Positions 37,034-64,000 of a stretch of DNA of 64,000 nt are shown here, one piece after another. Under the pieces are notes generated by a model. It saw only the letters and a program-made list of their open reading frames with translations, searched no databases and was not told the DNA's origin. The DNA is from an uncultured Gammaproteobacteria bacterium (GTDB taxonomy: Bacteria > Patescibacteriota > Microgenomatia > Levybacterales > UBA12049), in contig OZ246394.1 in the NCBI GenBank assembly GCA_965230895.1, positions 712,627 to 776,626 of the forward strand, written 5' to 3'. A program made the position numbers and the translations under genes. Numbering within the stretch: the stretch's first letter is position 1; the number at the start of each line of letters is the position of its first letter.

Positions 37034-39043
37034 TTAGAGATCAAGCTTCGTTTCTTTATCTGTTGTCAAATTAAATGTCTCTTCTGCCTTGCCGTTAATT
37101 GTTGTTGTGTATTCATGACCTGCTGTACCTGGCTGCTTTTGGATAAGCAATGGAAGTGGAGATCCTTTTTCAAGCTTAAATGGAAGCTTGTATTTCACTT
37201 CAAGTGAACCAACACCTTTTGGACGTACAGTTACAAAGCCTTCAATGACAGTCTTTCCAAGATCTTCTGAAGTTGTCATCTTAACCTGCGATCCCTTACT
37301 TTCAATTAACTCACTACCCTTTGGAACATAGATACGGATCCAATCTCGGTATTCAGCATTCAAACAAAGTCCACCACGCTCCAAATTACAATCAGATGGG
37401 GGGAATGGATTCTTATATTTAATCGTCAATGTCTTGGTAATATTACCGTCCTTATCGACTTCATAGGCATTGTCCACAGTTTCTTCCATAAAGATGTTTA
37501 CCTTTGCTCCTGAGAAATTAACTTCATTAATGTGGAGATAATCTCCTTCAAATGGTCTTATTTGGCCCGCAGCATTGAGAGCAACAATACCTTGCTGAGC
37601 TTGTTCGTCATACAAATTAAACATAATATGCTTTTGCTGTGTTTGCGCGATGATCGATTGGAAGAGTGGCCCCCAATATTGTTGTGGTGAAGATGAAAGT
37701 GCTTTTACCATGATTGCTGAAATCAAGTCTCCGATAATACTCTTTCGCTCTGTCTTAATATAATTAACTGGTCGAGAGATATCATTTTCAAGGACATAAA
37801 TTACTTGTGGGCAATCACATCGTGGATCAGTTTGTGTTGTAAATGTCTGTCCACCAGCTTGTACTTGATCATCAAGAATCTTAATTGTTGAGACAAGAAC
37901 GTGTGTATCGATAGCGATAATGCCATCAACATCTTCTTTTAATGCTGCTCTATCATACATTTCTTCAAAAGTCTTCATAGACTCTAGGAAGTCTGGAGAC
38001 AAATTGCTGTCACGTAAGTTTAATGTATATACCTTTGGAAGATACTTCAGTATCGGAGCTGGAGCTTTTGGCTTATTTGGAATTGAATCATCTAACTTAT
38101 AAATATCATCAGATTTTTCGAACTTAATAATACCCTTATCTATACTAAAGATAGCGTATGCAGTGATAAATCCACCAGTTGCACGAAGTTCTTTGTCATT
38201 CTGGAAGATAACAAGATATCGTTTAGCTTCCTGTTCACCGAGGAGTGAAGGTAACGTCTTAATAAGAGGCTTTGCATCACTCACTGCTGTTGCTGTTTGG
38301 TCTGCAGTGGTTTTGAGCATTGTCAATTGATCTTTGATCTTATTTCCAAAAATGATTTTTGGATAATGATTTGGGTCAACTTGATCAATTTCCTCTTGAA
38401 CCTTCACCAGTGAGGATTCTATCTTATCGATTTGCGGAGTAATTTTGCCCATACTGAGAACTGCGGTCTTAATTCGATCTTCAGTTGATCCCCCTGCGGA
38501 ACTATCATTTCCCTTTAAACCTAGTACGTCTGCATAAGGAGTTAATGAATCAGCAACCGTTTTTGCACTATCAAGTCCATGTTCACCAGCATTGAGCAAA
38601 TGCTCTGCGTCAGAATAGTACCAACCCACAATTGGAACAAATTTAAGTGGAACTAGGTAGCCAAGGTTTCGTTGCGTTTCTTTTAATGAAGCTTGTGTCT
38701 TTGTAATCTCTTGCGAAGCAAGCTCTACATTTTGTTTTTTGAGGGCGTTTTTAATAAGTTGTGCCTGTCGGTATGTCTTCAGACCGGATTGGTATGTCGC
38801 ATAAGCAGGGATACTAATGAGAACAACTAAGAGTGCGAAAATTCCCAAACCAATATAAAGCTTCTTTGAAACTTTAAATTTCTTTCCTCCTGAATTACCT
38901 TTTCTTCTCTTTGCCATTGGATCCTCCGTTACGCTTTTACTATTTGCGAAATCCTGCGGTGCCTTTCTCGGTACGTTTGTTGTTGTTTGGGTTGCAGAAG
39001 TTCGTTTTGGTTGTGCAAATTCTATTTTATCAAATCCAGCCAT
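37034..39043 (-). CDS. DUF4012-domain membrane-anchored extracytoplasmic protein
   Basis: A basic N-terminus is followed by one TM helix ('LYIGLGIFALLVVLISIPAYA') and a large exported domain containing 'RYLVIFQNDKELRATGGFITAYA'. I recall that signature as the DUF4012 family, which is frequent in CPR and Actinobacteria glycan loci. Confidence 0.5.
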   Translation of the reverse strand: MAGFDKIEFAQPKRTSATQTTTNVPRKAPQDFANSKSVTEDPMAKRRKGNSGGKKFKVSKKLYIGLGIFALLVVLISIPAYATYQSGLKTYRQAQLIKNALKKQNVELASQEITKTQASLKETQRNLGYLVPLKFVPIVGWYYSDAEHLLNAGEHGLDSAKTVADSLTPYADVLGLKGNDSSAGGSTEDRIKTAVLSMGKITPQIDKIESSLVKVQEEIDQVDPNHYPKIIFGNKIKDQLTMLKTTADQTATAVSDAKPLIKTLPSLLGEQEAKRYLVIFQNDKELRATGGFITAYAIFSIDKGIIKFEKSDDIYKLDDSIPNKPKAPAPILKYLPKVYTLNLRDSNLSPDFLESMKTFEEMYDRAALKEDVDGIIAIDTHVLVSTIKILDDQVQAGGQTFTTQTDPRCDCPQVIYVLENDISRPVNYIKTERKSIIGDLISAIMVKALSSSPQQYWGPLFQSIIAQTQQKHIMFNLYDEQAQQGIVALNAAGQIRPFEGDYLHINEVNFSGAKVNIFMEETVDNAYEVDKDGNITKTLTIKYKNPFPPSDCNLERGGLCLNAEYRDWIRIYVPKGSELIESKGSQVKMTTSEDLGKTVIEGFVTVRPKGVGSLEVKYKLPFKLEKGSPLPLLIQKQPGTAGHEYTTTINGKAEETFNLTTDKETKLDL

Positions 39044-39104
39044 TGTTTATAATCCCTTATCAAAATATTACTCATTTATACTTGAGCTAGTAGTGGTACA
39101 TTCT

Positions 39105-39142
39105 ATGATACCGAAAATTTTCGCTGCTTGTCAACTTGACAA
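39105..39142 (-). promoter_or_regulatory. Sigma70-like promoter for the DUF4012 gene with embedded palindromes
   Basis: On the minus strand the region reads TTGACA-18 nt-TATCAT. Plus-strand 'tgtcaa' lies at 39129-39134 and 'atgata' at 39105-39110. The -35 box sits inside the perfect palindrome TTGTCAAcTTGACAA (39128-39142). The spacer contains a second palindrome, CGAAAATTTTCG. Confidence 0.35.
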
Positions 39143-39150
39143 TGTATGAG

Positions 39151-39819
39151 TTAGGACGCACCTTTGCCAGATACCATCGCCCATGGAGTCTTAAGAATAA
39201 TATAGATATCAAGTAGAATTGACTTCTTTCTTGCGTAATCAGCATCCATTTGGATACGTTTATCAAACTTTAATTCGCTTCTTCCAGAAACCTGCCAAAA
39301 ACCTGTAATACCTGGTTTAACAGACAGCACTTCTTTTACAAGCTCTTTTGTTTGTGGGTATGCTTTCTGTTGTTTCTCAAGCTCTTCAGGATAATATGGA
39401 CGCGGCCCGACCAAACTCATCTCGCCTCTCAAAACATTAAAAAATTGTGGCACTTCATCGAGAGAATGTTTGCGTATAAACTTACCAACATGTGTAATAC
39501 GAGGATCATTTTTAATTTTATAATTTCCACCTTTTTGCTGTTCCTCATATGCTTTCTTGAACTTAGGATCAGTTTTTAATAAATAATATGCATTTACGAT
39601 CATTGAGCGGAACTTATACGGATAGAAAAATTTATTGTTTTTTCCAACTCTTCTCGGGGTATCAGCTAATATCGGCCCTTTTGATTCTAATTTGATGGCC
39701 AGAGCAACAATAATCATAATTGGAGAAAATAAAAGAAGGAGAAGGAGAGAAGAAATAATATCAATAGTTCTCTTTATAAATTCGTAGACCAAGCTTTGTG
39801 TGTGCTTTTTAGAAGACAT
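39151..39819 (-). CDS. Polyprenyl-phosphate sugar-1-phosphate transferase (bacterial sugar transferase, PglC/WbaP C-terminal type)
   Basis: An N-terminal TM helix is followed by the conserved C-terminal block '[14 protein letters not shown]...[28 protein letters not shown]'. Confidence 0.8.
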
Positions 39820-39821
39820 AG

Positions 39822-40907
39822 CTATGCCAGATGTTCGTAGTCAGTCCCACTAAGGTTTTGTACGAACTTCTTAATCTTAGGGACAGAGTCTTTTGGACAA
39901 ATCAAGATAACATCTTCCATACTTACGACGACAAGACCCTGTAAATCAATTCCTACAATAAGCTGCTTTGTTTCATTATGGATAATCGAATCCACACAGT
40001 CTTCAAGAAGAACTTTTCCTTTTGTTACATTTGCGTCAATCTCATCACTTAATGCTTCTTTCAGTGCTTCCCATGCACCAATATCACTCCAACCAATATC
40101 CGCTGAAATAACCATTCCAGCTTTTGGATCCATCTTTTCCAAAATAGCGTTATCAAATGAAATCTTCTCAAGCTTTGGATATACTTCTGCCAATACTTTT
40201 TCGTATTCATCAGTACCGTATGCATCTTGTATCTTCTTTAGATCCTTAAATAACTCAGGTGAAAATTCTTCAAATAACTTCCAAAGGAATCGTGGAGTTG
40301 TCGCGAAATAACCAAGATTCCAGGAATGTCGGTTATCTTTTGCCCATTCTTTTGCAGTTTCAAGCGCTGGTCTATATTGAAATCCTGTGAATTCATGAAT
40401 TGGAAATCCTTCAACATTTTCTGTTTCTTTTCCAAATTCAATATATCCAAGGTTTTGATTTGCAAATCGAGGCTTCTGACCGATGAACACAATCTTTTCA
40501 GGATCCTTCAAGACAAGTTTTTCTGCAACTCTAAGAATTTTCCTAAATTCAGCTTCTTTCTTAACAAGATGATCACTTCCCCAAAGAAGAACAATTGGCT
40601 CATCAGGATTTGTTTTAACAAATTGAGAAATTACCAAACCAACAGCAGGACCAACGTCTCGCATTTCAGGTTCAACAATAACATTCTTTTCAGGTAGTTC
40701 TGGCAATTGTTCGTGGATGTGATTTGCGTATTGTGTACCTGTGGAGATAAATACATCTTCCCAAGCAAACTCAGGGAATAATTTATGGACAGCTATTTGG
40801 AGCATGGATCGATCGGCAATGATTTTTCCAAACTGCTTTGGGGCATTTTTACGAGAAAGGGGCCATAATCTACTTCCGACTCCACCTGCAAAAAGAACTA
40901 TTTTCAT
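39822..40907 (-). CDS. manC: Mannose-1-phosphate guanylyltransferase (GDP-mannose pyrophosphorylase)
   Basis: 'MKIVLFAGGVGSRLWPLSRKNAPKQF' matches the ManC/CpsB N-terminus. A nucleotidyl transferase fold is present. Confidence 0.7.
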   Translation of the reverse strand: MKIVLFAGGVGSRLWPLSRKNAPKQFGKIIADRSMLQIAVHKLFPEFAWEDVFISTGTQYANHIHEQLPELPEKNVIVEPEMRDVGPAVGLVISQFVKTNPDEPIVLLWGSDHLVKKEAEFRKILRVAEKLVLKDPEKIVFIGQKPRFANQNLGYIEFGKETENVEGFPIHEFTGFQYRPALETAKEWAKDNRHSWNLGYFATTPRFLWKLFEEFSPELFKDLKKIQDAYGTDEYEKVLAEVYPKLEKISFDNAILEKMDPKAGMVISADIGWSDIGAWEALKEALSDEIDANVTKGKVLLEDCVDSIIHNETKQLIVGIDLQGLVVVSMEDVILICPKDSVPKIKKFVQNLSGTDYEHLA

Positions 40908-40930
40908 AACGTATCTGTACCATTATAGTA

Positions 40931-42013
40931 TTAAATTACTTTCTTAACAAGTCTAAGAAACTCCTCTTTAAATTTCTTTTCACTGAACCTTTCAGCATTC
41001 TTCCTTACAGTATTTGTATCAAATTTTATTTTAGTAAACTGTTCTAAAGTGTCTACAAGCGATTCAACTGTTTGTTGCTCAAAGAAAAGACCAGTTTTGC
41101 CATCGACCACGGTATCTAACGCACCACCTCTTCTCAGTGCAATCACTGGTTTTCCAAATGCCTGCGCTTCTACAACTACTAATCCAAAATCTTCAAATGC
41201 AGGAAAAATAAGAGCACGGCAATTCTTGTAATATTTGACGAGTTCTTTATCGCTAAGATTGCCCAAAAATTCTACTGTCGGACCTGCCATTGCTTCAAGT
41301 TCTTTTTTCCAACTTCCCTCTCCTATGACTTTCAACGGTAGCTTAAGCCTATTACATGCTTCGATTGCTATATCTACTCGCTTATACTTCGTAAATTTTG
41401 AAAGTCTTGAAACAACGAGAAAGTATCCTTTATTATTTTTGTTTAAAGATGCTTTTGTGGGAGATAGTGAAACTGGAGGATAGACGATAAGTGATTCTCG
41501 TTGATAATACTTTTTAATTCTTCCTTGTACTTCAGTTGAAATCGCTACGAGCATATCAGGACGTGCTGCCGCAGCTTTATCCCATTTTCTTAAGTACGAA
41601 ACGACGGGGTTTGCTGCGATACGTAATCCAGGATTTTTAAAATATTCCTCATAGCCGCTCCACAAATACCTTGTGGGCGTGAGGACATAACTAATATGCT
41701 TCGTTCCAGGTTTGGTAACAATACCTTTTGCAGCCTCACTTGTTACTGAAATAACTAAATCATACTTTTCAAAAGAGAAACGTTCAAATGCCATTGGCAT
41801 AAGAAACGGGTACATCTCGTGATTCTTGACGGCATGGGGATATTTTTGAAGAAAGGAGGTTTTGACATTGAAAACTTCTGCCCATTGAGCAGTTGTAGCA
41901 TTATAAACAGAGGTAAAGAGTGGAGCATTGGGAAAGATTTTATGTAAAGCGAGCAAGACACGCTCAGCACCTCCCCATTTATTTACTCTATCGTATACTA
42001 ATGCTACTTTCAT
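40931..42013 (-). CDS. Glycosyltransferase family 4 (GT-B)
   Basis: A C-terminal 'EDFGLVVVEAQAFGKPVIA' motif (E-x7-E box) and an N-terminal 'KVALVYD...GGAERV' fit GT4. Confidence 0.7.
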   Translation of the reverse strand: MKVALVYDRVNKWGGAERVLLALHKIFPNAPLFTSVYNATTAQWAEVFNVKTSFLQKYPHAVKNHEMYPFLMPMAFERFSFEKYDLVISVTSEAAKGIVTKPGTKHISYVLTPTRYLWSGYEEYFKNPGLRIAANPVVSYLRKWDKAAAARPDMLVAISTEVQGRIKKYYQRESLIVYPPVSLSPTKASLNKNNKGYFLVVSRLSKFTKYKRVDIAIEACNRLKLPLKVIGEGSWKKELEAMAGPTVEFLGNLSDKELVKYYKNCRALIFPAFEDFGLVVVEAQAFGKPVIALRRGGALDTVVDGKTGLFFEQQTVESLVDTLEQFTKIKFDTNTVRKNAERFSEKKFKEEFLRLVKKVI

Positions 42014-43127
42014 AAATTGCTAAAGTTTGTTCTGCCATAATTTTCCAAGAAAATTGTTTGGAGATCTTTAATCCTCTCTCTTGTAAAGCATCGAAAGATT
42101 CTTTCTCCGCAAGAACTTTTTGCATTGTATCATTCAATTGCTGTATATCAAGAGGATTAAAATAAATCGCTGCATCCTTATAAATCTCTTTAAAGACGGG
42201 AATCTCTGATGCAATAACTAAACATCCTTGCTGCATTGCTTCCAGTCCAGGTAATCCAAATCCTTCCATTAACGATGGGAGGACCAATGCTTGAGCGTTT
42301 TTATATAATGCACTTAGTTCTTCATCAGCGACTGCGCCTGTAAAGATTACACTGTTTTGAAGATTGAGAGATTGAGATTTTTGCTTTAGTCTTTCATAAA
42401 AGTAATTCATTTTTCCAACCATAACTAACTTTACCTCTGGGTTATCAGAAATGACTTTAGAGAAAGCTTCAAGAAGCCGTTCTCCATTTTTATGGGGATA
42501 CGCATTACCAACATAGAGAAAATATTTATCTGATTTGGATACATGGTATTTCTTTAAATCTTTATCATTTGCTTTAGAGATCTTTGCATCTACGCCTTCA
42601 TACGTGACGATTACCTTCTCTTTTGTTACAGGGAGATGATCAATAATTTCTTGTTTTGTGGCCTCTGAAACTGCGATAATTTTTTGTGCTTTCTTTGCTG
42701 TTTCTTTCAAGACAAACTTATATCCCAATCTTTTTACATGATATAAGGGTGATGGCAAGGTTGAGGCTTTTCCTGTAGGAAAATGGTTAATAATTAAATC
42801 ATGGATGGTAATCACATATGGTTGATTGTACAAAATCGGTATTGAGAAATAAGGGAAATGGACAAGATCAAGCGACTCATTCTCCAGAACTTTGTAAAAA
42901 AGTAGTTGCTCTTCAATAGAATGCCATCGGATATCAGTTTTGACCAATGTCCATTTACTCTCTTTTTCTTTGATGAAATCAAACAAGTCACTTTGAAAAG
43001 CTTCTGGAGTTACAAAAAGAACGTAATGATTTTTTTTGTCGATTTGGTGGAGATATGAGATAAGATTGCGGATGTAGCGTCCGACACCGGTTTCGTCCCA
43101 AAGCCTAGCATCAATACCTATTCTCAT
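41988..43127 (-). CDS. Glycosyltransferase family 4 (GT-B)
   Basis: 'MRIGIDARLWDETGVGRY' is the N-terminus. The C-terminal 'PSLMEGFGLPGLEAMQQGCLVIAS' motif is GT4-like. Confidence 0.7.
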   Translation of the reverse strand: MRIGIDARLWDETGVGRYIRNLISYLHQIDKKNHYVLFVTPEAFQSDLFDFIKEKESKWTLVKTDIRWHSIEEQLLFYKVLENESLDLVHFPYFSIPILYNQPYVITIHDLIINHFPTGKASTLPSPLYHVKRLGYKFVLKETAKKAQKIIAVSEATKQEIIDHLPVTKEKVIVTYEGVDAKISKANDKDLKKYHVSKSDKYFLYVGNAYPHKNGERLLEAFSKVISDNPEVKLVMVGKMNYFYERLKQKSQSLNLQNSVIFTGAVADEELSALYKNAQALVLPSLMEGFGLPGLEAMQQGCLVIASEIPVFKEIYKDAAIYFNPLDIQQLNDTMQKVLAEKESFDALQERGLKISKQFSWKIMAEQTLAIYESSISIR

Positions 43128-43153
43128 GAATAAAGTATACCATAGGAAGCTGG

Positions 43154-43405: not shown

Positions 43406-43446
43406 AAGATCGCTATTCTAGCACGAAACGAGGACAATTTCAAAGG

Positions 43447-44640
43447 TTACTTACGAAGAACATTTGTATATGTGCTTTCTAAACCACGAGTTATATATTT
43501 CCATGTATAATTCTTTTCTATAAACGTTCGTCCTTTACCGCTAATTTTTTCATAAAGTTCTTTACTGTGAAGTACTTCATACGTTTTTTCTGCAAGTTGT
43601 TTAGCATCATTTCCTACTAATAATTCTTGTTCGTCTTCTGCATGGAGAGCATTGGCACTTAAAGACATTGTTATTACCGGTGTTCCGCAACTCATGGATT
43701 CAAGTATTTTATAGCTCGTTCCGCCTCCCACTCGAATTGGTGCAAGTAAAACAGCTGCTTCTTGAAAGATATCTGGAGTGGGTTTTGCTGACGTCGCTTC
43801 ATCAAATAAAACACGTGGATCATCAGTTAAATTCCGAATTGCATTGGGAATATTTCTTGCAACAAACCAAAGTTTTACATTATCTGAAACTTTATTCTTT
43901 AACAGTGGCCAAACATCTTGAATGATATATGCGGCGCTATCTCTATTTTGGATCCATTTGAAGTCTCCAATAAATAAGATCTTTTTCTCATCTTTCACTT
44001 TTTTCTGCAAGGGAATAAAGAAGAACTGATCTACATTAACACCATTGGCAGCGATATCTGCATTAAAACCAAATGTTTTAAGAATCGAGGCATCGTCTGA
44101 AGAAACCGTAACAACTTTTGAAGCGCGCTTCCATGATGACTCTTCTTCGCGTTTGATCTTCGCAATATCAATTCCCAGTAAGGGCTTAACAGGAAGAGGC
44201 GCCTGATTTTTAAATCGTTCATACACTTTATATTCGATATTATGCTCAATCAAAACAATTGGAATTTTGGTTTCTGGGACATTTTGCATAACATAAAATG
44301 TTTCAACATGAATCAAGTCAAACTGTTCATTCTGTAATAGCGTTTCAATTTTCTCACGCATTTCCGGAAGCTCATGACCAGTAGAAAGAAATGATTTTGA
44401 GGAAATTCCAGCTTTTGTAATATTTGATAAACTCCATTGTTTCTTTCGTGGCACAAGGATAACTTTTTTACAGATTTTTTCTACTTGCTTGATATCATTG
44501 TCTGTCTCCGTTGGACGACGTTCGCAGACCAGCGTAATTTCATGACGAGAAGAAAGCTCTTTAATAATATTATAGAGGCGTACTTGCCCACCAGAAAAAA
44601 GTGGATACGGTAAATATGAGGAAACAAGTAATATCTTCAT
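43447..44640 (-). CDS. Glycosyltransferase family 4 (GT-B)
   Basis: 'MKILLVSSYLPYPLFSGGQVRLYNI' is the N-terminus. The C-terminal 'GGGTSYKILESMSCGTPVIT' motif is GT4-like. Confidence 0.7.
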   Translation of the reverse strand: MKILLVSSYLPYPLFSGGQVRLYNIIKELSSRHEITLVCERRPTETDNDIKQVEKICKKVILVPRKKQWSLSNITKAGISSKSFLSTGHELPEMREKIETLLQNEQFDLIHVETFYVMQNVPETKIPIVLIEHNIEYKVYERFKNQAPLPVKPLLGIDIAKIKREEESSWKRASKVVTVSSDDASILKTFGFNADIAANGVNVDQFFFIPLQKKVKDEKKILFIGDFKWIQNRDSAAYIIQDVWPLLKNKVSDNVKLWFVARNIPNAIRNLTDDPRVLFDEATSAKPTPDIFQEAAVLLAPIRVGGGTSYKILESMSCGTPVITMSLSANALHAEDEQELLVGNDAKQLAEKTYEVLHSKELYEKISGKGRTFIEKNYTWKYITRGLESTYTNVLRK

Positions 44641-49183: not shown

Positions 49184-49777
49184 TTAGCGAAACCACGCAG
49201 CACGTCCTAACTTATAATGCAGATCCTTTGATTTGCGCTCTCCTATCACCTTTGCAGGGATACCACCAACTATAGCATATGGCTCAACAGATTTGGTTAC
49301 GACAGCACCAGCACCGACAACACTACCTTTACCCAAAGTTACTCCAGGAAGAATAATTGCCCGTGGGCCGATAAACACGTAATCATCAATCACAACACAT
49401 TCAGAAATAGCATGGAAATCATCGCTATGGATATCGTGTTGGCTATTGTAGATCATAACTTCTGAAGCAATATCTACATGATCACCAATAACAAGCTTCT
49501 CACGTCCATCCAAAACAGCAAATTCACCGATAATTGTATCTTTACCGATAACAATATTGGCAGGATTATAAAACCGAGCACCTACATGAAGTGTTGATCC
49601 ATCACGAATAGTCATACCTGCAAGTCGATAAAAGAATCTTCGAATATGATGGGACGGTAGATGCCCAACGACATGAAGCACCCAAACGACGAATTCACGA
49701 AAAACGGTATTGGATCTATTCTGCGCCTTCCGTTTAAAGTCTTTTGAAAACATATTTCTATTTAAACTATTTGCCAT
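49184..49777 (-). CDS. Hexapeptide-repeat (LbH) O-acetyltransferase, paralog of the gene at 452..991. The likely start is the internal ATG at MANSLNR, which avoids overlap with the upstream GT4.
   Basis: 'IVIGKDTIIGEFAVLDG' and 'IILPGVTLGKGSVVGAGAVVTKSVEPYAIVGGIPAKVI' align block-for-block with the 452..991 product. Confidence 0.7.
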   Translation of the reverse strand: MANSLNRNMFSKDFKRKAQNRSNTVFREFVVWVLHVVGHLPSHHIRRFFYRLAGMTIRDGSTLHVGARFYNPANIVIGKDTIIGEFAVLDGREKLVIGDHVDIASEVMIYNSQHDIHSDDFHAISECVVIDDYVFIGPRAIILPGVTLGKGSVVGAGAVVTKSVEPYAIVGGIPAKVIGERKSKDLHYKLGRAAWFR

Positions 49778-56032: not shown

Positions 56033-58184
56033 AGAATAAATGTATTATAAAGTATAAGGTTATTACAGCAAATGTAAATAAACTTATTATATCTCCAAAT
56101 GCGAAAACGGCCTGAGGAGCAAAGAATATTGTCGCAGTAAAGCTTACACTTTTATCAGAGTTTATAGTTATTTGGTTTGGATATTCTTTTTTTAGTTTAT
56201 CTACATCAATTACCCAAGCATTGAGATATTCATTATATCGCATATGAGTTTTTAAGATATCCTTATTCAAGAAAAATTGTGTCTCATGTAGATTTCTTGT
56301 ATCCCCTAAATACATTTCCCACTTCTCAGAATATGGATTATCAAAAATGATTTGAGATTTTTGAGAAACATGCTTTACATCAACAGTATATCTTGCTGGT
56401 GATACCTTTTCATAAGTGATCTCTGCATTTTTATCAGAAATACTTATTAAGGGCTTTTGAACTTTATTGTTTTCTACGACTTTTTTGATTTGATAGACGT
56501 TTATATCTCGAGCTTTATCAGTTGTAGATATATAGCCTGAATCTGGCGTTCCTTGGAGATGTCCAACAAATACCAAGCGATTATCTTTAGCTAATTGAGC
56601 ATTTATTTGGGCTGAATTGTTTTGCAGATTGTTATAGATCATGATTGTATCAATATTATGATCTGTTAAATAATCAATTGTACTTGATTTGGTTATATCA
56701 CTTATCTTTGCATAATGCGCTTGCGCATAAGGATCAAAAGGGCTTGCTCCACATGCAAACGCTTTATTATGAACAATCTGGGCTTTTAATTGATATGTTT
56801 CAGGACATCCAGTGACAACATCATTTTGAGTCATTGGATACGTAGCAATGGCATGAATATCCTCATTATCTTTGATTGATTGATAAAGTTGTACTTCCTT
56901 AGAAAAATTACTCAAGCGCCACCAAGATTGATCAACGTTTAGCGAGTTGCCAACCAAGACAAGCGTTAAGATTGAGAACAGTATAACTTTGTAGTTTTGG
57001 TGTAACTTCCTGTAGTACATGCTTTGCATAAAACCATGAATTGCAAGCCCAAACAATATCCCTAAGAATAAATAGGCCAACAAAACCATACGAGCCACCC
57101 CTCTAAAAATTCCGAAATACTTAAAATAAATTTCATTGATCCAATATGTATAAGGTGAATATGCTGATAAGATAAGTGCACCGAGGAAACAACATAATAT
57201 AGCAACTTGAATACTTGTTCTTCGCAAGAATACAAGCCCACAAAAAACAATTAAAGGTACTATTACATATAAGATATTCCCTATATACGGAATATATGTT
57301 TTTAGCATGCTGTATTCAGGTGGAGAGAAATAATAGAGAATACTGAGTAATTCGTTCTTTGCGATAGAATTTCTACCTGTAGCAACTGCGGCCTCACTAT
57401 TGAATAGGTAGAAGTTTGTCACAAAGAAGTTAAAATTGCATGCAATTAAAACGAGTAATAAAACTGGATAATAGATACATGCGCTTTTTAAACTGGAAAT
57501 TAATGACTCTCTTTTATAAGCAAAAAAGATAAGTGGAGAAAGTAGCCCTGAGAAAAATGCATAATAAGCATCTGTATTAAACAGCAATGCAAAAGTCGCT
57601 GAAGAGAGTAGCAAGCTAAACACTGTCTTTCTATCTAAGAAATATACTAGTGATAAGAAATAAAACGGGATGAGCTCAATATGATTGACTGATAGTTGAG
57701 CTCTTGCCATATGCACATGATAAAAAGAGAAACTAAAAATAATGCCCGCCAAAAAACTTGCTGCTTTATTTTTTGTGAGATAATAACAAAATAAATAAGC
57801 CCCAATTGCTGATAAGGGATATGTAATGAGAGAAGAGATGTTTGTTAAGAGGATTAAGTTATTCCAATTAAAACCGATTATATATTGCATAATAAATGCC
57901 TGAGAGACATAGACCAAATTCCTAAATGGCATAAAAGTTATGTCAAATCCGAAGGGATAAGAGAAAAACTGATTAATGTAGTAAAGATATCCCTCAGATT
58001 GGATATGAATCAAATACCATTGATACCAAAGTCCTCCATCTGCGTCAACGTCCGGCATTCCATAGTAAGTATTTATATGAGGTAGCTTGTTATAAAAGAT
58101 GATAGCAGTTAATGCAGAGTATACAAGAAAGAAAAAGATGATTGTAAAAAGTTGATTATTGAAAAGTCGTTTTATGTGCCTCAT
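56013..58184 (-). CDS. Large (723 aa) polytopic membrane protein with an N-terminal ~12 TM domain, a ~280 aa extracytoplasmic domain and a C-terminal TM anchor. Paralog family, GT-C/YfhO-like architecture.
   Basis: The first loop carries 'GMPDVDADGGLWYQWYL', an acidic D-x-D-x-D motif. It is about 50% identical by eye to 58181..60328 over the TM domain ('NHIELIPFYFLSLVYFLDRK' versus 'NHIEFIPLYFLSLFYFLNRK'). Confidence 0.55.
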   Translation of the reverse strand: MRHIKRLFNNQLFTIIFFFLVYSALTAIIFYNKLPHINTYYGMPDVDADGGLWYQWYLIHIQSEGYLYYINQFFSYPFGFDITFMPFRNLVYVSQAFIMQYIIGFNWNNLILLTNISSLITYPLSAIGAYLFCYYLTKNKAASFLAGIIFSFSFYHVHMARAQLSVNHIELIPFYFLSLVYFLDRKTVFSLLLSSATFALLFNTDAYYAFFSGLLSPLIFFAYKRESLISSLKSACIYYPVLLLVLIACNFNFFVTNFYLFNSEAAVATGRNSIAKNELLSILYYFSPPEYSMLKTYIPYIGNILYVIVPLIVFCGLVFLRRTSIQVAILCCFLGALILSAYSPYTYWINEIYFKYFGIFRGVARMVLLAYLFLGILFGLAIHGFMQSMYYRKLHQNYKVILFSILTLVLVGNSLNVDQSWWRLSNFSKEVQLYQSIKDNEDIHAIATYPMTQNDVVTGCPETYQLKAQIVHNKAFACGASPFDPYAQAHYAKISDITKSSTIDYLTDHNIDTIMIYNNLQNNSAQINAQLAKDNRLVFVGHLQGTPDSGYISTTDKARDINVYQIKKVVENNKVQKPLISISDKNAEITYEKVSPARYTVDVKHVSQKSQIIFDNPYSEKWEMYLGDTRNLHETQFFLNKDILKTHMRYNEYLNAWVIDVDKLKKEYPNQITINSDKSVSFTATIFFAPQAVFAFGDIISLFTFAVITLYFIIHLFYARYKK

Positions 58185-60328
58185 AGAGTATTTTTATTCT
58201 TTAATCTCCAAAAATACATTATAAAGTAAATAGCAAGACATATCAAAACAATATTTCTAATTAACGAGCTAATTTGTATATAGATCGATGGCGTAAATAG
58301 AACCGTAGCTTTTAAGGAGCTATTTGCATCAATATTTTTAATTTTCCAACCATTCGCATAATCATTGATTGTTATATGTTCAGCTTCTAAAGGAGCAATA
58401 CTCGGAATTGCTAGAGTATTAAATGTCATTTGGCTTCCATTGTATATTTGCCACTTATCAGAGAATGGCTGATCAAAGACTATAACTGTTTCTGGGTTGA
58501 TATTTGGAACAAAAATTTCATATTGATATTGAGAAATCTTTTTTGTATAGACGTTACCGTTTTCTATTGTAAAAATATTTTTAGGCGGACGGCTTACTAC
58601 TTCTTTTATCTGATATACAGAAATGTCTCTCGATTTGTTATTGGAAGTAACATAATCACTATCTATTGGTTGAGTGTACCTTCCTACAAACTTTAATCGT
58701 TCATTATTAAGAAGCGTCTTATTAATTTCTAGACTATTAGGCAGTAAATTATTATAAATAATGATTGTGTCTACATTATACTTTACAAGCAGATCTATTG
58801 TGTCTTGACTTGATATATCTTTAATCTTTTTTTGATATTCAATTGATTCTTTGGAGAACGGACTTGCTCCTGTTACGATTTTCTTATTGTGAACTATTTG
58901 TCCAAGTAATTGATAGGTACGCGGATTTCCGTAATCAACAAAATCTAACTCAACAGGATATGGTGCAATAACTTTAATTGAGGAATTTTCTTTTATTGGT
59001 TCATAAAGTTTTGCTATCTTGGAAAAATCAGAATACATCTTCCAACTTGCATCATGATTTAACCCAATCGCTACTACAAAAAATGCTAATAACAAACTTA
59101 TCAATATCTTCTTCTTGCCTGCAATCTGAGTTATTAATACCCCTATCATTAATCCTTGGAATAGATAGACCACATGGTACATTCTTGCAACACTTCTAAA
59201 CATTCCAAAGTAATGAAAATACAACTGGTTCAGCCAATAGAATAATGGCGTATATGCTGATAATATAACAGCTATCAAAGCACAGAAGAATAAAGTTTTA
59301 TATACCCTATTTTTAAATTGGAAGAATAAACCAATAATTAGGATTATTGGAATCAGTGCACCAAAGTAAGAAAACGATTTATTAAATAAGTAAATGATGA
59401 TGCTTGTTTCAGGAAGACTAAAATAAAAGCTTAATGGTAATAACTCATTTCTATAATTAGTGACCCGACCCGATTGGACTAAGTATTGATGGTCAAAAAG
59501 TAATATATTGGAAATTATGAAATTTAAGTTAAGTAAAACGAGCAAGACAAGAAGCGCTCCATAATAGACTCCAATAGTTCTTATCTTTGATAAAATACTC
59601 TCCTTTTGATAAAAAAGAACAATAACTATAGATATGAGACCACAGAAAAATGCGTAATAAGCATCTGCATTAAAGGTAATACTAAATACAAATGCAGAAA
59701 GAACTAAAGAGACTATGCTTTTCCTATTAAGGAAGTAAAACAGACTTAAAAAGTATAACGGTATAAACTCAATGTGGTTAATGGACATTTGCCCTCTCCC
59801 TGCCAAAACGAAGCTAAAAGAAAAAGCATAAATAAGCCCGCAAACGAAACTGCCCATATAACTTCTTGTGAGGTAAAAACATAAACATGCAGCACTTATT
59901 GCAGCTAATGGGTAGACCAGTAACGAAGAAATATTAGTTATTAAAATAAGATTTTGCCATGAGAAACCAAACATTTTTAGCAGGGCAATGTGTACTGAAT
60001 AAATCAATGTTTCAAAGGGTTTAAATGTAATATCAAATCCAAATGGAAAACCAATGTAATCAGTAATTTCATAAAGCTCCTTTTTCTGTTCAAGAAAAAC
60101 AAGGAACCATTGATACCAAAGTCCTCCATCAGTATCAATATCTGGCATTGCATAACGAGTATCTAGGAAGGGCAAACGATGGTGGAATATTAGGAGAGTA
60201 AGAATAAGATAGATAAGAAATCCTATTATCGATACACTAACAAATTGCTGGACTTTATTTTGTCCATCTATAACGTTAGTAATCTTTTTCAAAAAACTAC
60301 TTTTCTGTTGATATCGATTTTGATTCAT
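58181..60328 (-). CDS. Large (715 aa) polytopic membrane protein, tandem paralog of 56013..58184
   Basis: It carries 'AMPDIDTDGGLWYQWFL' and has the same domain order. The C-terminal exported domain is homologous ('ISVYQIKEVV...YEIFVPN...FDQPFSDKWQIYNG'). Confidence 0.55.
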   Translation of the reverse strand: MNQNRYQQKSSFLKKITNVIDGQNKVQQFVSVSIIGFLIYLILTLLIFHHRLPFLDTRYAMPDIDTDGGLWYQWFLVFLEQKKELYEITDYIGFPFGFDITFKPFETLIYSVHIALLKMFGFSWQNLILITNISSLLVYPLAAISAACLCFYLTRSYMGSFVCGLIYAFSFSFVLAGRGQMSINHIEFIPLYFLSLFYFLNRKSIVSLVLSAFVFSITFNADAYYAFFCGLISIVIVLFYQKESILSKIRTIGVYYGALLVLLVLLNLNFIISNILLFDHQYLVQSGRVTNYRNELLPLSFYFSLPETSIIIYLFNKSFSYFGALIPIILIIGLFFQFKNRVYKTLFFCALIAVILSAYTPLFYWLNQLYFHYFGMFRSVARMYHVVYLFQGLMIGVLITQIAGKKKILISLLLAFFVVAIGLNHDASWKMYSDFSKIAKLYEPIKENSSIKVIAPYPVELDFVDYGNPRTYQLLGQIVHNKKIVTGASPFSKESIEYQKKIKDISSQDTIDLLVKYNVDTIIIYNNLLPNSLEINKTLLNNERLKFVGRYTQPIDSDYVTSNNKSRDISVYQIKEVVSRPPKNIFTIENGNVYTKKISQYQYEIFVPNINPETVIVFDQPFSDKWQIYNGSQMTFNTLAIPSIAPLEAEHITINDYANGWKIKNIDANSSLKATVLFTPSIYIQISSLIRNIVLICLAIYFIMYFWRLKNKNTL

Positions 60329-61370
60329 CGTAACTTCTTAAATCGGGTTTATAACCAAATGCATGCATGACAGTATGATAAATGATAAGACTTGCAGTAA
60401 AAATGCACAGTGGGACATGGATTAAATAACGGATATCTTTTCTGGTAACACAAAGTTTTATTGCATCAAAGAAACAAACAATTAGGGTGAATACATATGG
60501 AATAAATAAATATTTCTTATATTGCAAAGCATTTGAAGAATACTGTTCTCTCCCAGTAAACCCTGAAGCTCCCATTTCAGATACATGATAAATATTATTC
60601 TTTACTCTCCAGCGAATCTTGTTTAAATATTTTCCTAATGTATCTGAGGAATAATGAAAAAGTGCATCATTTTTGGTTAAAGCAATGTCTGCACCTTTAG
60701 AATTCATTAAGTAAAAAAAATGGGGAATTAATCTTATATCGTTTTTCGTCTCAGTAAAATGCTTTTTCATATAATTACCGTCAAACATGCTTCCTCCAGC
60801 AACTAATTCAATAATTGGCATCTGCTGGACATTGGTAAGATTAAAAATTGTATAGTCTTTTTTATTAGCGATGAAACCATATCGTTTTATCATCTGCTTA
60901 AGAAAGAAGCGCGCATCTTTCGACAAATTATAAATATATGCAGAGAACGGATCACCAAATTCATTTATATAGTTATTTATGAATGGATATCCTTTAGGAT
61001 TTTTATATCCACTTCCTATTACCGCTCTAACATTCTCATTTTCCTTAAACACTTGAATCTTCTTCTCCAAACTTCTTGGATTCTCAATTACTTCATCATG
61101 GTCTAAATAAAGTAAGTATGTACCTTGTGCTTGGGTATAACCCAAGAACTTCGCATTTACAGGATCTGTCTTAGGATTATTAATAACGATACATTTATAT
61201 TTTTCGGCGATTTTAAATGTACCATCAGTGGAACCACCATCAATCAATAAAATTTGTAATTTATTTTGAGGGAATGTTTGCTTCTTTATAGAATCTAATA
61301 CTTTTGGAAGTATATGTTCGGAGTTAAATGTAGCAATAATAATAGAAAGTTCAATTGTGCTTTTTGACAT
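60297..61370 (-). CDS. Glycosyltransferase family 2 with C-terminal TM helices (polyprenyl-phosphate sugar synthase-like: DPM1/GtrB/CsbB architecture)
   Basis: 'LSIIIATFNSEHILPKVLDSIKKQTFPQNKLQILLIDGGSTDGT' is the GT2 core. Hydrophobic C-terminal segments follow ('YLFIPYVFTLIVCFF', 'VPLCIFTASLIIY'). Confidence 0.6.
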   Translation of the reverse strand: MSKSTIELSIIIATFNSEHILPKVLDSIKKQTFPQNKLQILLIDGGSTDGTFKIAEKYKCIVINNPKTDPVNAKFLGYTQAQGTYLLYLDHDEVIENPRSLEKKIQVFKENENVRAVIGSGYKNPKGYPFINNYINEFGDPFSAYIYNLSKDARFFLKQMIKRYGFIANKKDYTIFNLTNVQQMPIIELVAGGSMFDGNYMKKHFTETKNDIRLIPHFFYLMNSKGADIALTKNDALFHYSSDTLGKYLNKIRWRVKNNIYHVSEMGASGFTGREQYSSNALQYKKYLFIPYVFTLIVCFFDAIKLCVTRKDIRYLIHVPLCIFTASLIIYHTVMHAFGYKPDLRSYDESKSISTEK

Positions 61371-61378
61371 AGTGAGAA

Positions 61379-62521
61379 TTAATCCTGCTCACTCTTAAAA
61401 AATTTTTTAAGGGAATCAATAACTGTTTTTACTTGATCTTCTTGCATTTCATAAAATAGAGGTAGACGCAATAATCTATCAGCAGTGGAATCAGTATTTG
61501 TCATAGTGCCTGAAACTCTCCCATACTTTTTCCCTGCTGGAGATGAATGCAGAGGAATATAATGAAAAACGGAAAGTATATCTTTATTTTTAAGCGTTTT
61601 AATCAATCTTTGTCTTGTTTCTAGATCTCTAAGTAAAATGTAATACATATGAGCATTATGCTCGCAATCTTTTGGCACAATAGGTCGTCGAATAAAACCT
61701 TCATTTTCAAGATCTTCTAAGGATTCATGATAGAGATCCCAGAGTTTTATTCTATTTTTGAGAATATCTTTCGAATTTTCTAACTGCCCCATCAAGAACG
61801 CTGAAACTATCTCTCCAGGAAGGTATGAAGAACCTATGTCTACCCATGTATATTTATCTACTTGTCCACGCAGAAACTGGCTTCGATTTGTACCTTTCTC
61901 TCTAATTATTTCAGCACGATCACTAAACTTTGCATTATTAATGAGCAATGCACCGCCTTCTCCAGAGATGACGTTTTTTGTCTCATGGAAACTATATGTT
62001 CCCATATCTCCAATTGTCCCTAAATGCTTTCCTTTATACTTTGCATCAAAGCCTTGTGCTGCGTCTTCAATAACATAAAGTTTATGCTTCTTCGCTATTT
62101 TTAGAATTGTATCCATTTCGCAACCGACACCCGCATAATGTACAACCATAATAGCTTTTGTTTTCTTTGTAATAGCTTGTTCAATGAGCTTTTCATCTAT
62201 ATTTAGCGTATCTTCTCGTATATCAATAAAGACGGGAATAGCTCCACGAAGAGCAATTGCATTGGCTGTAGAAACGAATGTATAAGAGGGCATAATGACT
62301 TCATCACCAGGTTGTAGATCTACAAGCAAAGCACTCATTTCAAGAGCACCTGTACAAGAATGCGTAAGAAGTGCTTTTGTTGTTCCGGTATGTTTTTCAA
62401 TCCATTTATGACAAAGTTTTGTGTAGTACCCATCCCCTGAAAGTTGCCCCAAAGAATGTGCATGGCTGATATATCCCATTTCTTTATGGGTAAGATAAGG
62501 TTTATTAAATGGGATTTTCAT
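61379..62521 (-). CDS. wecE: DegT/DnrJ/EryC1-family PLP-dependent sugar aminotransferase, WecE(RffA)-like
   Basis: 'IPFNKPYLTHKEMGYISHAHSLGQLSGDGYYTKLCHKWIEKHTGTTKALLTHSCTGALE' closely parallels the E. coli WecE N-terminus (FN.P...G.E..Y...A...G.L.GDG.FT..C..W.E...G....LLT.SCT..LE). Confidence 0.65.
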   Translation of the reverse strand: MKIPFNKPYLTHKEMGYISHAHSLGQLSGDGYYTKLCHKWIEKHTGTTKALLTHSCTGALEMSALLVDLQPGDEVIMPSYTFVSTANAIALRGAIPVFIDIREDTLNIDEKLIEQAITKKTKAIMVVHYAGVGCEMDTILKIAKKHKLYVIEDAAQGFDAKYKGKHLGTIGDMGTYSFHETKNVISGEGGALLINNAKFSDRAEIIREKGTNRSQFLRGQVDKYTWVDIGSSYLPGEIVSAFLMGQLENSKDILKNRIKLWDLYHESLEDLENEGFIRRPIVPKDCEHNAHMYYILLRDLETRQRLIKTLKNKDILSVFHYIPLHSSPAGKKYGRVSGTMTNTDSTADRLLRLPLFYEMQEDQVKTVIDSLKKFFKSEQD

Positions 62522-62532
62522 ATGTTGCTTGA

Positions 62533-63243
62533 TTATAACCAGATATGGTAAACGTTTTCAACACTTTCTACTGTACAACCTATTTTTTCATAAAATGCGC
62601 AGGCTCCAATATTATTTTTTTGGGTCACTACCTGGATAGTATCAATACCCATAGTCTGAAATGCTGCAAAGGCCGCATGCATCAATTTTTTCCCTATATG
62701 TTTTCCGCGCTGTTTCTCATCAACTGCAAGTAAACCTATGTCACCTCTTTTATTTTTCACACTAAGAGTAATAAAACCTACCTCTTTACCATCTAACACG
62801 TATACAAGAACATTACTTGCAATTTTGCCATTTAAGGAATTAGTGAGCCATGTTGTGTATAAACGCTTGTATTGTTCTTCAGTAAAATGATTATCTCTTC
62901 TGAAGCGGGAATACACACCGCTTTGTAATGCGAGTGTAATTAAGGCCTCCGTTGCCAATTTATCTTTATACTCATGAATTTGAGGGTCTTTTGAGAACTT
63001 ATCATCATTAACGGATGTAACATATGTAACTTTTTCGTCAATAAGATTTCCAACACTTTGCAAGCTTTTGTTTGAGTCTATGTCTTTAGGGTTTGCAAAA
63101 GCATATACTAAATCAACTTTTTCTTCCTTCGCTTTCATTACTATATTGTTAAGAGCTTCTTCGTTCAAATCTTTTGCATCAATTTTCGCAACATTAAAAT
63201 TAAAAAAATTGGAATCCCACTGCAAAGGAATTAGAGTATTCAT
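62533..63243 (-). CDS. wecD: GNAT acyltransferase resembling WecD/RffC (dTDP-4-amino-4,6-dideoxygalactose N-acetyltransferase)
   Basis: 'LQWDSNFFNFNVAKI' corresponds to WecD 'LTWENAFFGVNSAIV'. 'IGLLAVDEKQRGKHIG' is the GNAT motif A. The C-terminus 'VESVENVYHIWL' corresponds to WecD 'VESTAYWLYR'. The gene is directly adjacent to the wecE-like gene. Confidence 0.55.
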   Translation of the reverse strand: MNTLIPLQWDSNFFNFNVAKIDAKDLNEEALNNIVMKAKEEKVDLVYAFANPKDIDSNKSLQSVGNLIDEKVTYVTSVNDDKFSKDPQIHEYKDKLATEALITLALQSGVYSRFRRDNHFTEEQYKRLYTTWLTNSLNGKIASNVLVYVLDGKEVGFITLSVKNKRGDIGLLAVDEKQRGKHIGKKLMHAAFAAFQTMGIDTIQVVTQKNNIGACAFYEKIGCTVESVENVYHIWL

Positions 63244-63244
63244 A

Positions 63245-64000
63245 TTATTTAGTTACCGTATTCACAATAATTTCACTTGGACGCTGTTTGGGATTAATCG
63301 GTTTTTTTGCATATTTTTTATAATTCTTAAAAAAATCTTTTATTACATCAAAATTATTCTTACTAAGAACTACATTATGATTTAAGCCCTCAATACGCTC
63401 AGTTGCTGAACGAAGAATAAGACATGGTTTACCAAAATAATATGATTCTTCCTGATTACTTCCTCCATCCGTTACAATAAATTGACATCCATCAATTACT
63501 TTCATAAATTCCACGTAACTCAATCTTTCGCTAAGAATAATATTTTTATGTGCTTTAAGCTTTTGCATTAATCCTTTCTTTTCTAAGACAAGTATCGTAG
63601 GAGCGTGCATTACAAAAACACATTTCATATTCTTCGCGTGTGCAATAACATTATCAATCAACAATTCAACGAGTTGATCATTAAACAGGTTCTCCTGACG
63701 ATGCATAATAAAAAGGAAATATTTTTCTTTCTTAATACGATCCAACAGTTTTGATTGAACTTTTGTATTTATGACCATATTTAGACTATCCAATAAGGTA
63801 TTCTGGCCCGTATTAACTTTTAACCCGCTCTTATTCTTAAGATTATTAACAGCCCATTCATTAGGACATAGGTGAATATCTGTTAATTGAGAAGTAATAA
63901 CCCTGTCAATCTCTTCTGGAAAAGGATGGAAATAGTTAAATGATCGCAAACCAGCCTCAACATGAGCTATCTTTAAACCATACCGCTTCGCGATAAGTGC
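63245..64000 (-). CDS. wecB: UDP-N-acetylglucosamine 2-epimerase (WecB/MnaA family), partial. The N-terminus lies beyond the window end, and the ORF-track start at 63949 is internal.
   Basis: Manual translation upstream of 63949 continues in frame as '...ALIAKRYGLKIAHVEAGLRSFNYFHPFPEEIDR'. The HVEAGLRS/PFPEE motifs and the C-terminal 'FIVTDGGSNQEESYYFGKPCLILRSATER' define non-hydrolysing 2-epimerases. Confidence 0.7.
   Translation of the reverse strand, partial: ALIAKRYGLKIAHVEAGLRSFNYFHPFPEEIDRVITSQLTDIHLCPNEWAVNNLKNKSGLKVNTGQNTLLDSLNMVINTKVQSKLLDRIKKEKYFLFIMHRQENLFNDQLVELLIDNVIAHAKNMKCVFVMHAPTILVLEKKGLMQKLKAHKNIILSERLSYVEFMKVIDGCQFIVTDGGSNQEESYYFGKPCLILRSATERIEGLNHNVVLSKNNFDVIKDFFKNYKKYAKKPINPKQRPSEIIVNTVTK

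Follow-up and report, generated by a model that had tools for sequence, protein, structure and literature searches.

The window analysed here, a 64,000-nucleotide stretch of DNA (contig OZ246394.1 of assembly GCA_965230895.1, positions 712,627 to 776,626), is occupied from position 37,034 to its end by a cluster of glycan genes. These genes probably constitute a Wzx/Wzy_C-type wall glycopolymer locus of a Levybacteria-like bacterium of the candidate phyla radiation (CPR), with the polymer being decorated extracellularly by systems that combine a GT-A glycosyltransferase, a flippase and a GT-C glycosyltransferase. The locus is bipartite: module A spans 37.0-51.5 kb, and module B extends from 51.5 kb to at least 72.5 kb in window-equivalent coordinates. 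The presence of a priming polyprenyl-phosphate sugar-1-phosphate transferase (PGT), a Wzx-type flippase and a Wzy_C/WaaL-like domain implies that the core logic is that of the canonical lipid-linked Wzx/Wzy-type route, and module B probably holds one or more transmembrane glycosylation systems made up of several components.

The cluster exceeds 35 kb; from 37,034 to the window end, its genes all lie on the minus strand without a break and with frequent overlaps between start and stop codons. The contiguous minus-strand run described in the initial annotation of this DNA is thus borne out by the open reading frames (ORFs) and their Pfam/NCBIfam assignments, as is the CPR-like host, which is Levybacteria-like judging by the names attached to 73%-identical homologues. 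The count of 25 or more genes, by contrast, drops to 22 between 37,034 and the window end, or 23 if a doubtful ORF of 83 amino acids (aa) is included. Nor does the locus represent an outsized genomic investment, as had been thought: given that the exact proteins were found on a 1.61-Mb NCBI contig, it takes up about 2% of the genome, which is no extreme share.

Gene content and proposed pathway

Module A comprises the following genes (GA, Pfam gathering threshold; GT, glycosyltransferase):

37034..39043, minus strand: DUF4012 exported protein, 669 aa (PF13196, 76.7 bits)
39151..39819, minus strand: priming PGT, 222 aa (PF02397, 208.8 bits)
39822..40907, minus strand: ManC-like mannose-1-phosphate guanylyltransferase, 361 aa (NTP_transferase and ManC_GMP_beta-helix)
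40931..42013, minus strand: GT4, 360 aa (Glycos_transf_1, 100.3 bits)
41988..43127, minus strand: GT4, 379 aa (Glycos_transf_1, 121.2 bits, and Glyco_transf_4)
43447..44640, minus strand: GT4, 397 aa (Glyco_trans_1_4, 66.4 bits, and Glyco_transf_4)
44640..46100, minus strand: PMT_2-type GT-C, 486 aa (PF13231, 45.9 bits versus GA 26.1, residues 83-247)
46097..49135, minus strand: 1012-aa fusion protein (Wzy_C at residues 238-444)
49184..49777, minus strand: LbH (hexapeptide) O-acetyltransferase, WcaF-like, 197 aa (Hexapep, 50.4 bits)
49779..50927, minus strand: GT4, 382 aa, GT4_382 (Glycos_transf_1, 124.2 bits)
50930..51472, minus strand: stand-alone N-terminal half of a GT4, 175-180 aa (Glyco_transf_4, 27 bits, slightly below GA)

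The genes of module B within the window are:

51511..51723, minus strand: 70-aa small membrane protein (ORF with hydrophobic helices)
51720..52553, minus strand: 277-aa C-terminal part of a split GT-C homologue of about 680 aa (aligns with residues 417-680 of the single-chain homologue P0149)
52537..53760, minus strand: 407-aa polytopic catalytic-core part of the same split homologue (no Pfam match)
53763..54878, minus strand: 371-aa polytopic membrane protein of an unmodelled family (syntenic partner of the 680-family gene)
54875..56032, minus strand: GT4, 385 aa, GT4_385 (Glycos_transf_1, 77.8 bits)
56013..58184, minus strand: glycosyltransferase with GT-C fold, 723 aa (YfhO-like family, unmodelled)
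58181..60328, minus strand: 715-aa tandem paralogue of the 723-aa GT-C (PTPS_related, weak, E 0.09)
60297..61370, minus strand: GT2, 357 aa, GT2_357 (PF00535, 74.7 bits)
61379..62521, minus strand: WecE, dTDP-4-amino-4,6-dideoxyhexose transaminase (NF008687, 617.9 bits versus a cutoff of 375; TIGR02379, 615 bits)
62533..63243, minus strand: WecD-like GNAT, N-acyltransferase-like (NF008212, 102.5 bits, below the cutoff of 219)
63245..64000, minus strand: WecB-type UDP-GlcNAc 2-epimerase, cut by the window end (TIGR00236, 126.8 bits on the fragment)

Module B continues on a Logan contig (L001) that is 100% identical to the window over 4,419 bp (59,582-64,000) and reaches 8.5 kb further. This extension carries the rest of WecB (368 aa in full; Epimerase_2, 176 bits), a short-chain dehydrogenase/reductase (SDR), a second DegT aminotransferase, a 269-aa GT2 (GT2_269; L001 5116-5925) and, beside it, a Wzx-type flippase of 418 aa (about 67,390-68,646 window-equivalent; Polysacc_synt_3, 45.3 bits versus GA 23), as well as another GT4, GalE (432 bits versus a cutoff of 262), another GT2 and a partial polytopic protein. 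The initial annotation had reported no Wzx, Wzz or ABC exporter in the window, which is correct for the window itself, where all ORFs of at least 140 aa were read and where the first 34 kb likewise yielded no MOP flippase, Wzz or ABC exporter. However, it had also taken the missing Wzx as a sign of a non-textbook system, and this absence is a window-edge artefact, as the flippase lies on the identical contig about 3.4 kb beyond the window end. Of the wzx/wzy/wzz cluster that was to be sought past the edge, Wzx is thus present in the 8.5-kb extension, whereas no Wzz or other polysaccharide co-polymerase (PCP) was seen there.

Based on this gene content, the donor sugars, the order of steps and the acceptor can be proposed as follows. 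In module A, the small PGT would prime polyprenyl-phosphate, on which the five GT4s, using GDP-mannose supplied via the ManC-like enzyme, together with the O-acetyltransferase would build a cytoplasmic lipid-pyrophosphate-linked oligosaccharide, probably mannose-containing and O-acetylated. After flipping, the WaaL-like N-terminal domain of the 1012-aa protein would ligate or polymerize this oligosaccharide outside the membrane, while the fused PMT_2-like domain and the 486-aa PMT_2 enzyme would add sugars from polyprenyl-phosphate-sugar donors. Module B would provide nucleotide sugars, with WecE/WecD responsible for dTDP-4-acetamido-4,6-dideoxyhexose and with WecB, the second aminotransferase, the SDR and GalE also contributing. 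A GT2, for which GT2_269 beside the flippase is the best candidate, would make the polyprenyl-phosphate-sugar, the Wzx-type flippase would move it outward, and the YfhO-like GT-Cs (715, 723 and the split 407+277) would transfer the sugar onto the surface polymer, resulting in a strain-specific or variable surface decoration.

Most individual assignments agree with those made initially. The Pfam scores support both the DUF4012 protein and the priming PGT, and WecB, WecE and the LbH acetyltransferase are confirmed, with WecD present as a GNAT below the cutoff; its NF008212 match is full-length, and GNAT Pfam families match as well. ManC, five full-length GT4s (360, 379, 397, 382 and 385 aa) and the membrane-anchored GT2, which has two C-terminal transmembrane (TM) helices (approximately residues 286-335), are also recovered, but the supposed GT4 remnant is a conserved gene. 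Stand-alone ORFs 59-74% identical to it are found in L012, L023 and L024 (compared loci carry L numbers) and a separate gene also in L026, and because of this conservation among relatives, a pseudogene is ruled out. That a gene limited to the N-terminal Rossmann half is kept in this way speaks for a split GT-B enzyme or a partner of the Alg14 type and against gene decay.

The DUF4012 protein has a single N-terminal TM helix (approximately residues 57-86) and its gene ends the locus, with recO and glyS coming next; orthologues at the same position are 95% (L023) and 59% (L024) identical. DUF4012 is a CPR-enriched family that is shared with Gram-positive bacteria and has been reported in the exopolysaccharide (EPS) cluster of Bifidobacterium longum (PMC6744442). 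The PGT consists of the Bac_transf catalytic domain only; in the WbaP, WcaJ and EPS_sugtrans models, it aligns with the catalytic part at the C-terminus. The ManC-like protein has no isomerase domain; its match to TIGR01479 (214.7 bits) is below the cutoff and covers positions 3-347 of 467. The LbH acetyltransferase matches the WcaF subfamily with 91 bits, also below the cutoff; its maximal ORF extends to 49870, and the protein is 197 aa long in other assemblies.

Between two of the GT4 genes, there is an insertion of about 320 bp (43128-43446) containing the 83-aa ORF (43154-43405, minus strand), which is Arg/Ala-rich and atypical in composition. In an 84%-identical relative (L023), a mere 23-nt gap is found at this site. 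The insertion (43.1-43.4 kb) contains no RNA gene and has no Rfam match at E-values of up to 1.

The large membrane proteins

The initial annotation had singled out five large GT-C proteins, including three paralogues of about 720 aa. The high GT-C load is real and lineage-typical, but the third protein is no such paralogue: it is the split 407+277 homologue. The 723- and 715-aa proteins are 40% identical over 697 aa (BLASTP, E 1e-171). In both, the first extracytoplasmic loop contains a DxD-like acidic motif; in the 723 family, this motif, M-P-D45-x-D47-x-x-G-G-x-W, is invariant and located right after TM1 (helix 11-29), with M43, P44, D45, D47, G50 and G51 conserved in all 27 sequences. In a confident AlphaFold2 model of the 723-aa protein built on the family alignment (pLDDT 87.8, pTM 0.86), the polytopic core is helical, the extracytoplasmic domain is rich in beta structure and a TM anchor is present at the C-terminus; the polytopic core of the 723/715 proteins superposes on solved GT-C enzymes. 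On this structural evidence, both proteins are predicted to be GT-C glycosyltransferases and not transporters, in line with the expectation voiced initially for the large membrane proteins as a whole.

With the 715- and 723-aa proteins, a GT-C family is defined that escapes every Pfam and NCBIfam model. The 723-aa protein has no match in these databases, including YfhO (PF09586) and PTPS_related (PF10131), even at E-values of up to 10, and the 715-aa protein reaches 11.6 bits against PTPS_related (GA 26.4), which places it outside both families. Weak PTPS_related matches occur in only 4 of the 27 family members, and more remote relatives match YfhO only marginally, one of them scoring 29.5 against a threshold of 28.5. 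A word-indexed search of 5.8 billion proteins recovered only 26 close relatives, and a HMMER profile of the family run against 1.84 billion representatives gave 63 matches at E<=1e-30, 429 at <=1e-10 and 2950 at <=1e-3. The family is small and lies at the margin of a larger superfamily.

The 407- and 277-aa ORFs overlap by 17 nt and correspond to a single polypeptide in most of the 526 homologues, with which their match is colinear. Residues 1-402 of the former align with 1-404 of P0149, and residues 13-277 of the latter with 417-680. Most of the 120 homologues listed are about 660-710 aa long, and a few are about 400-430 aa. In the 277-aa protein, a single TM helix and an extracytoplasmic domain are combined with a TM anchor at the C-terminus; the C-terminal domain is similar to the one in the 723-aa protein. 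A close paralogue of 723/715 is ruled out by BLASTP, but comparison of the 680-family and 723-family profiles indicates remote homology (hhalign, 99.5%, E 1.5e-22, 619 columns), so that the 680 family is a distant homologue of the 723 family with the same architecture. A sequencing or assembly frameshift, or a pseudogene, can be dismissed as the cause of the split, because it is identical in independent assemblies and recurs in the divergent loci L025 (426+285 aa) and L026 (416+282 aa), whose genomes are only 41-49% identical and where the C-terminal part is likewise encoded directly downstream. The family has a weak GT-C_AftD signal in Pfam.

Two further membrane ORFs in conserved synteny with this gene were absent from the initial list. 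Homologues of the 371-aa protein, 32-36% identical, are syntenic in L008, L023 and L025. The 70-aa ORF overlaps the stop codon of the 277-aa gene, and a 53% identical ORF follows the 694-aa single-chain homologue in L008; by analogy with GacJ, the GT-C system may include its product as a small membrane subunit. No Pfam or NCBIfam assignment was obtained for the 723-, 715-, 407-, 277- and 371-aa proteins, and for the 723-, 407- and 371-aa proteins nothing usable emerged even at E-values of up to 10.

The 1012-aa protein of module A combines a WaaL/Wzy_C-like N-terminal half (approximately residues 1-510) and a predicted PMT_2-like GT-C C-terminal half (approximately 520-1012). The former is recognized by Pfam Wzy_C above GA and by a structural match to WaaL, and the latter is indicated by homologues 55-57% identical, whose C-terminal halves score above the PMT_2 threshold (34.7 and 38.7 bits). 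Together with the invariant pair D557-D558 at the start of the C-terminal half, these homologues support the Wzy_C+GT-C fusion that had been proposed. The protein has more than 1500 homologues, the best 120 of which are full length, 44-84% identical, mainly from Levybacteria/Patescibacteria and, where named, labelled 'O-antigen ligase family protein' or 'hypothetical protein'. Three Arg residues, R252, R395 and R430, are invariant. So is D425 of the Wzy_C motif x-N-x-Y-L-x-x-x-G-E-x-G-x-x-G (region 47860-47870) in all 49 aligned homologues; by eye, it appears to occupy the position of the essential His in the WaaL/PglL motif HN..L....E.G..G. The start of the adjacent 486-aa PMT_2 gene overlaps the stop codon of the fusion gene, and the two invariably adjoin each other in relatives (57-78% identity). 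Searches of the PDB with the 723-, 1012- and 486-aa proteins and their family profiles gave no real sequence match, and the folds of the large membrane proteins emerged from structure prediction only.

Conservation and exchange of the modules

Comparison with related CPR genomes revealed that the island is conserved in part: module A is kept, whereas module B varies between close relatives. Both L023, with a 1012-aa protein 84% identical, and L024 (48%) retain the whole downstream block, including the GT4 N-terminal half, GT4, LbH acetyltransferase, fusion, PMT_2 protein, GT4s, ManC, PGT and DUF4012; in L023, which reaches further downstream, RecO and GlyRS follow. The upstream part is exchanged for other GT2/GT-C sets. 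For instance, L024 carries a YfhO-like protein, two PMT proteins and GT2s, and L023 a 714-aa relative of the 680 family and a homologue of the 371-aa protein. The GC content is 0.326 in module B compared to 0.387 in the backbone.

Genes of module B recur as a cassette across phyla. When one genome per species was scanned, relatives of the 723 family turned up at 12 loci, and in 10 of these, WecB, WecE, an orthologue of GT2_357 (41-69% identical) and the GT-C are co-located, with the GT2_357 orthologue within a few kb of the GT-C. The cassette is found in CPR and Proteobacteria, including cultured Paracidovorax, Acidovorax and Chitinimonas, in which the GT-C is about 600 aa long, the C-terminal domain being absent. 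In Acidovorax sacchari, the GT-C relative is directly downstream of a full-length PgfS/ArnC-like GT2 (223 and 167 bits), which by its sequence is predicted to be a classic polyprenyl-phosphate-sugar synthase partner. In CPR and archaeal loci, GT4_385 comes after the 720-aa GT-C, being 36-67% identical and adjacent in L008 and L010-L015.

Several of these loci deserve comment. In L012, genes of module B occur together with genes of the module A type (GT4 N-terminal half, GT4_382 and LbH acetyltransferase, 54-59% identity). L011, L012 and L016 carry the CPR-type locus under the title 'uncultured Gammaproteobacteria bacterium', and these taxonomic labels look unreliable. On L015, a contig of a Desulfurococcales archaeon metagenome-assembled genome, a full-length relative of the 723-aa GT-C (6312-8522, 32% identical) adjoins a GT4_385 homologue and an SDR gene, reflecting either inter-domain transfer or mis-binning. 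In L008, a relative of 826 kb, there is a gene with bAvd/23S_rRNA_IVP domains just downstream of the glycan locus (21974-22181); proteins of this type are accessory to diversity-generating retroelements.

The first 34 kb of the window contain a dcw/peptidoglycan cluster and genes for IleRS, RodA, ParB and a pilin-like protein; the presence of the dcw cluster indicates that the host makes peptidoglycan. Between the dcw cluster and the glycan locus, a single gene is on the plus strand; it encodes a PurF-like amidophosphoribosyltransferase (33213-34880, 555 aa, GTG start) and converges on glyS (34861-36276, minus strand) with a 20-nt overlap. The pilin-like protein (9924-10499, minus strand; 191 aa) begins with an N-terminus like that of type IV prepilins, KGFTLIELLVVLGILGILAA, and is rich in Thr, Ser and Asn in its C-terminal part; it could be an acceptor for glycosylation but is unlinked to the glycan locus in relatives. 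No tRNA or Rfam family was found in the window. A second, small group of glycan-modification genes occupies the window start (413-3691, both strands):

413-991: WcaF-like LbH acetyltransferase
996-2078: acyltransferase-3-like polytopic protein, no NCBIfam match
2106-2864 and 2909-3691: two soluble GT2s, best match TIGR04283, below the cutoff

Alternative explanations and comparison with known systems

Several observations weigh against a wall glycopolymer locus with extracellular decoration. GT2_357, the GT2 most tightly linked to the GT-Cs, is not ArnC/GtrB-like in its NCBIfam and PDB matches, leaving its assignment as a GtrB/ArnC-type polyprenyl-phosphate-sugar synthase unsupported. The best NCBIfam matches of GT2_269 are ArnC, PgfS and PpgS, but it scores below every cutoff. 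No gene for a GtrA-type flippase, LytR-CpsA-Psr (LCP) ligase or Wzz/PCP was found in the 72.5 kb examined. In relatives, there is no Wzx within 10 kb of module A, so that the single Wzx could serve either module. The Wzy_C domain of the 1012-aa protein is a candidate ligase, polymerase or protein O-oligosaccharyltransferase and may be any of the three, and the acceptor may be a protein (S-layer or pilin), a lipoglycan or a wall polysaccharide.

The initial annotation had leaned towards a surface glycosylation system (S-layer, pilin or lipoglycan). Protein O-glycosylation is a possible but rather unlikely explanation in which the Wzy_C domain would be a PglL/PilO-type oligosaccharyltransferase and the PMT_2/YfhO-like GT-Cs would act on pilins, S-layer proteins or adhesins. 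The Wzy_C family, to which the 1012-aa protein is matched, also includes PglL and PilO, and the GT2 partner in Acidovorax has its greatest similarity to PgfS, a component of a protein-glycosylation system in streptococci. Furthermore, the window contains the pilin-like gene at 9924-10499, and type IV pili are a CPR hallmark (PMC6744442). However, in none of the compared genomes is there a gene for an acceptor protein in linkage with the locus, and the five GT4s, the PGT and the association of DUF4012 with EPS fit a polymer equally well.

An ordinary Wzx/Wzy O-antigen or capsule cluster, odd only because of the window cut and with incidental GT-Cs, would also account for the PGT, the many GT4 and GT2 genes, the nucleotide-sugar genes, Wzy_C and the Wzx just past the window, and the low GC of the variable part resembles that of O-antigen loci. 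We nevertheless consider this improbable. In the 72.5 kb, no genes were found for Wzz/PCP, outer membrane polysaccharide export (OPX) proteins, the lipid A-core that serves as WaaL acceptor or an ABC exporter, and CPR bacteria are considered to have no outer membrane (PMC6744442). The five GT-C systems are tightly linked, with start/stop overlaps and conserved synteny, and hence are not incidental, and the Wzy_C-GT-C fusion is present in more than 1500 homologues. With no Wzz and no outer membrane expected, the locus is not a demonstrable O-antigen cluster. Least of all do we favour a membrane-anchored lipoglycan resembling lipomannan or lipoarabinomannan, ManC-fed and elongated by GT-Cs from polyprenyl-phosphate-mannose: the conserved ManC of module A, the two PMT_2-type domains and the weak GT-C_AftD signal would fit, but no Ppm1-like polyprenyl-phosphate-mannose synthase is recognizable (the GT2s score below all such models), the PGT and WaaL-like domain indicate a lipid-pyrophosphate-linked oligosaccharide route, and the structural matches are generic to the GT-C fold.

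A Wzx/Wzy_C-type wall glycopolymer locus decorated by GT-A/flippase/GT-C systems thus remains our preferred explanation, and what it adds is new but incremental: an unmodelled GT-C family, a cross-phylum cassette, a Patescibacteria-wide WaaL-GT-C fusion and a recurrent two-polypeptide GT-C. A bolder proposition, which the sequences make conceivable and which we put forward only tentatively, is that the 1012-aa fusion, its obligate 486-aa partner and DUF4012 form an undescribed Patescibacteria-wide envelope-assembly machine, or that WecB-WecE-GT2_357-GT-C represents a new glycosylation system that moves horizontally. In the first case, the fusion would couple en-bloc glycan ligation with lipid-phosphate-sugar glycosylation on a non-lipopolysaccharide acceptor, such as pilin, S-layer or peptidoglycan; in the second, the cassette would attach 4-acetamido-4,6-dideoxyhexose to structures of the surface, outside the cell, and would be common to CPR, Proteobacteria and possibly archaea. 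CPR/Patescibacteria live attached to other cells, and, to our knowledge, there is almost no experimental knowledge of their cell envelope; a literature search on CPR GT-C systems, O-antigen ligase in Patescibacteria and Fuc4NAc in Acidovorax returned nothing specific. The locus offers a concrete parts list for a CPR surface glycan, with a conserved core and a group-wide WaaL-GT-C fusion, and its swappable decoration module probably yields strain-level surface diversity relevant to host and phage recognition. Given that the cassette is present in cultured Acidovorax/Paracidovorax, its function is genetically testable there, unlike in the uncultured host.

Among known systems, the enterobacterial common antigen (wec) cluster shares with module B adjacent genes for WecB, WecE (at equivalog score) and a WecD-like GNAT in the same order. 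However, these three, the last one below threshold, are all that is present here, embedded with GT2 and GT-C genes, whereas WecA, WecC, WecF, WecG, WzyE and WzzE are missing, which rules out the locus being such a cluster. Compared to WaaL (PDB 7tpj) and the Wzy_C family, the 1012-aa protein has an additional, PMT_2-like GT-C domain in the same chain, is accompanied by a separate PMT_2 gene, occurs in bacteria in which lipid A-core is not expected and has no sequence-level match to any PDB chain, even as a family profile. With respect to the ArnC/ArnT, PpgS/Rv3779 and PgfS/PgfM pairs, the 715/723 proteins fall outside the ArnT, PMT and YfhO sequence families, and, in comparison with ArnC/ArnT and PgfS/PgfM, the linked pathway is the dTDP-linked WecE/WecD one rather than that of UDP-Ara4N or UDP-GalNAc.

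The closest parallel is found in Gram-positive bacteria, in which the GT-A/flippase/GT-C arrangement has been described for teichoic acids and rhamnose polysaccharides, as exemplified by CsbB/GtcA/YfhO, GacI-J/GacK/GacL of S. pyogenes, the Csd pairs of L. lactis and GtsABC of B. anthracis (PMC8035078, PMC5836110). The locus described here differs from these in its CPR host, in 715/723 scoring below the YfhO and PTPS_related Pfam thresholds, in that no GtrA-type flippase was seen, in having one GT-C as two polypeptides and in the linkage of the cassette to WecE/WecD/WecB, which suggests an unusual amino-dideoxyhexose donor. In other respects, it resembles them. GT2 genes adjoin large polytopic GT-Cs whose first outer loop has a DxD-like acidic motif, the Wzx-type flippase and an ArnC/PpgS-like GT2 are neighbours, as in the case of GacK, several GT-A/GT-C sets are encoded beside a Wzx/Wzy-type polymer locus, there are extra small membrane proteins, and the variable module differs among close relatives. 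Hence, although no canonical cluster had initially been recognized, the content and gene order fit Gram-positive secondary wall polysaccharide loci with GT-A/flippase/GT-C decoration (PMC8035078).

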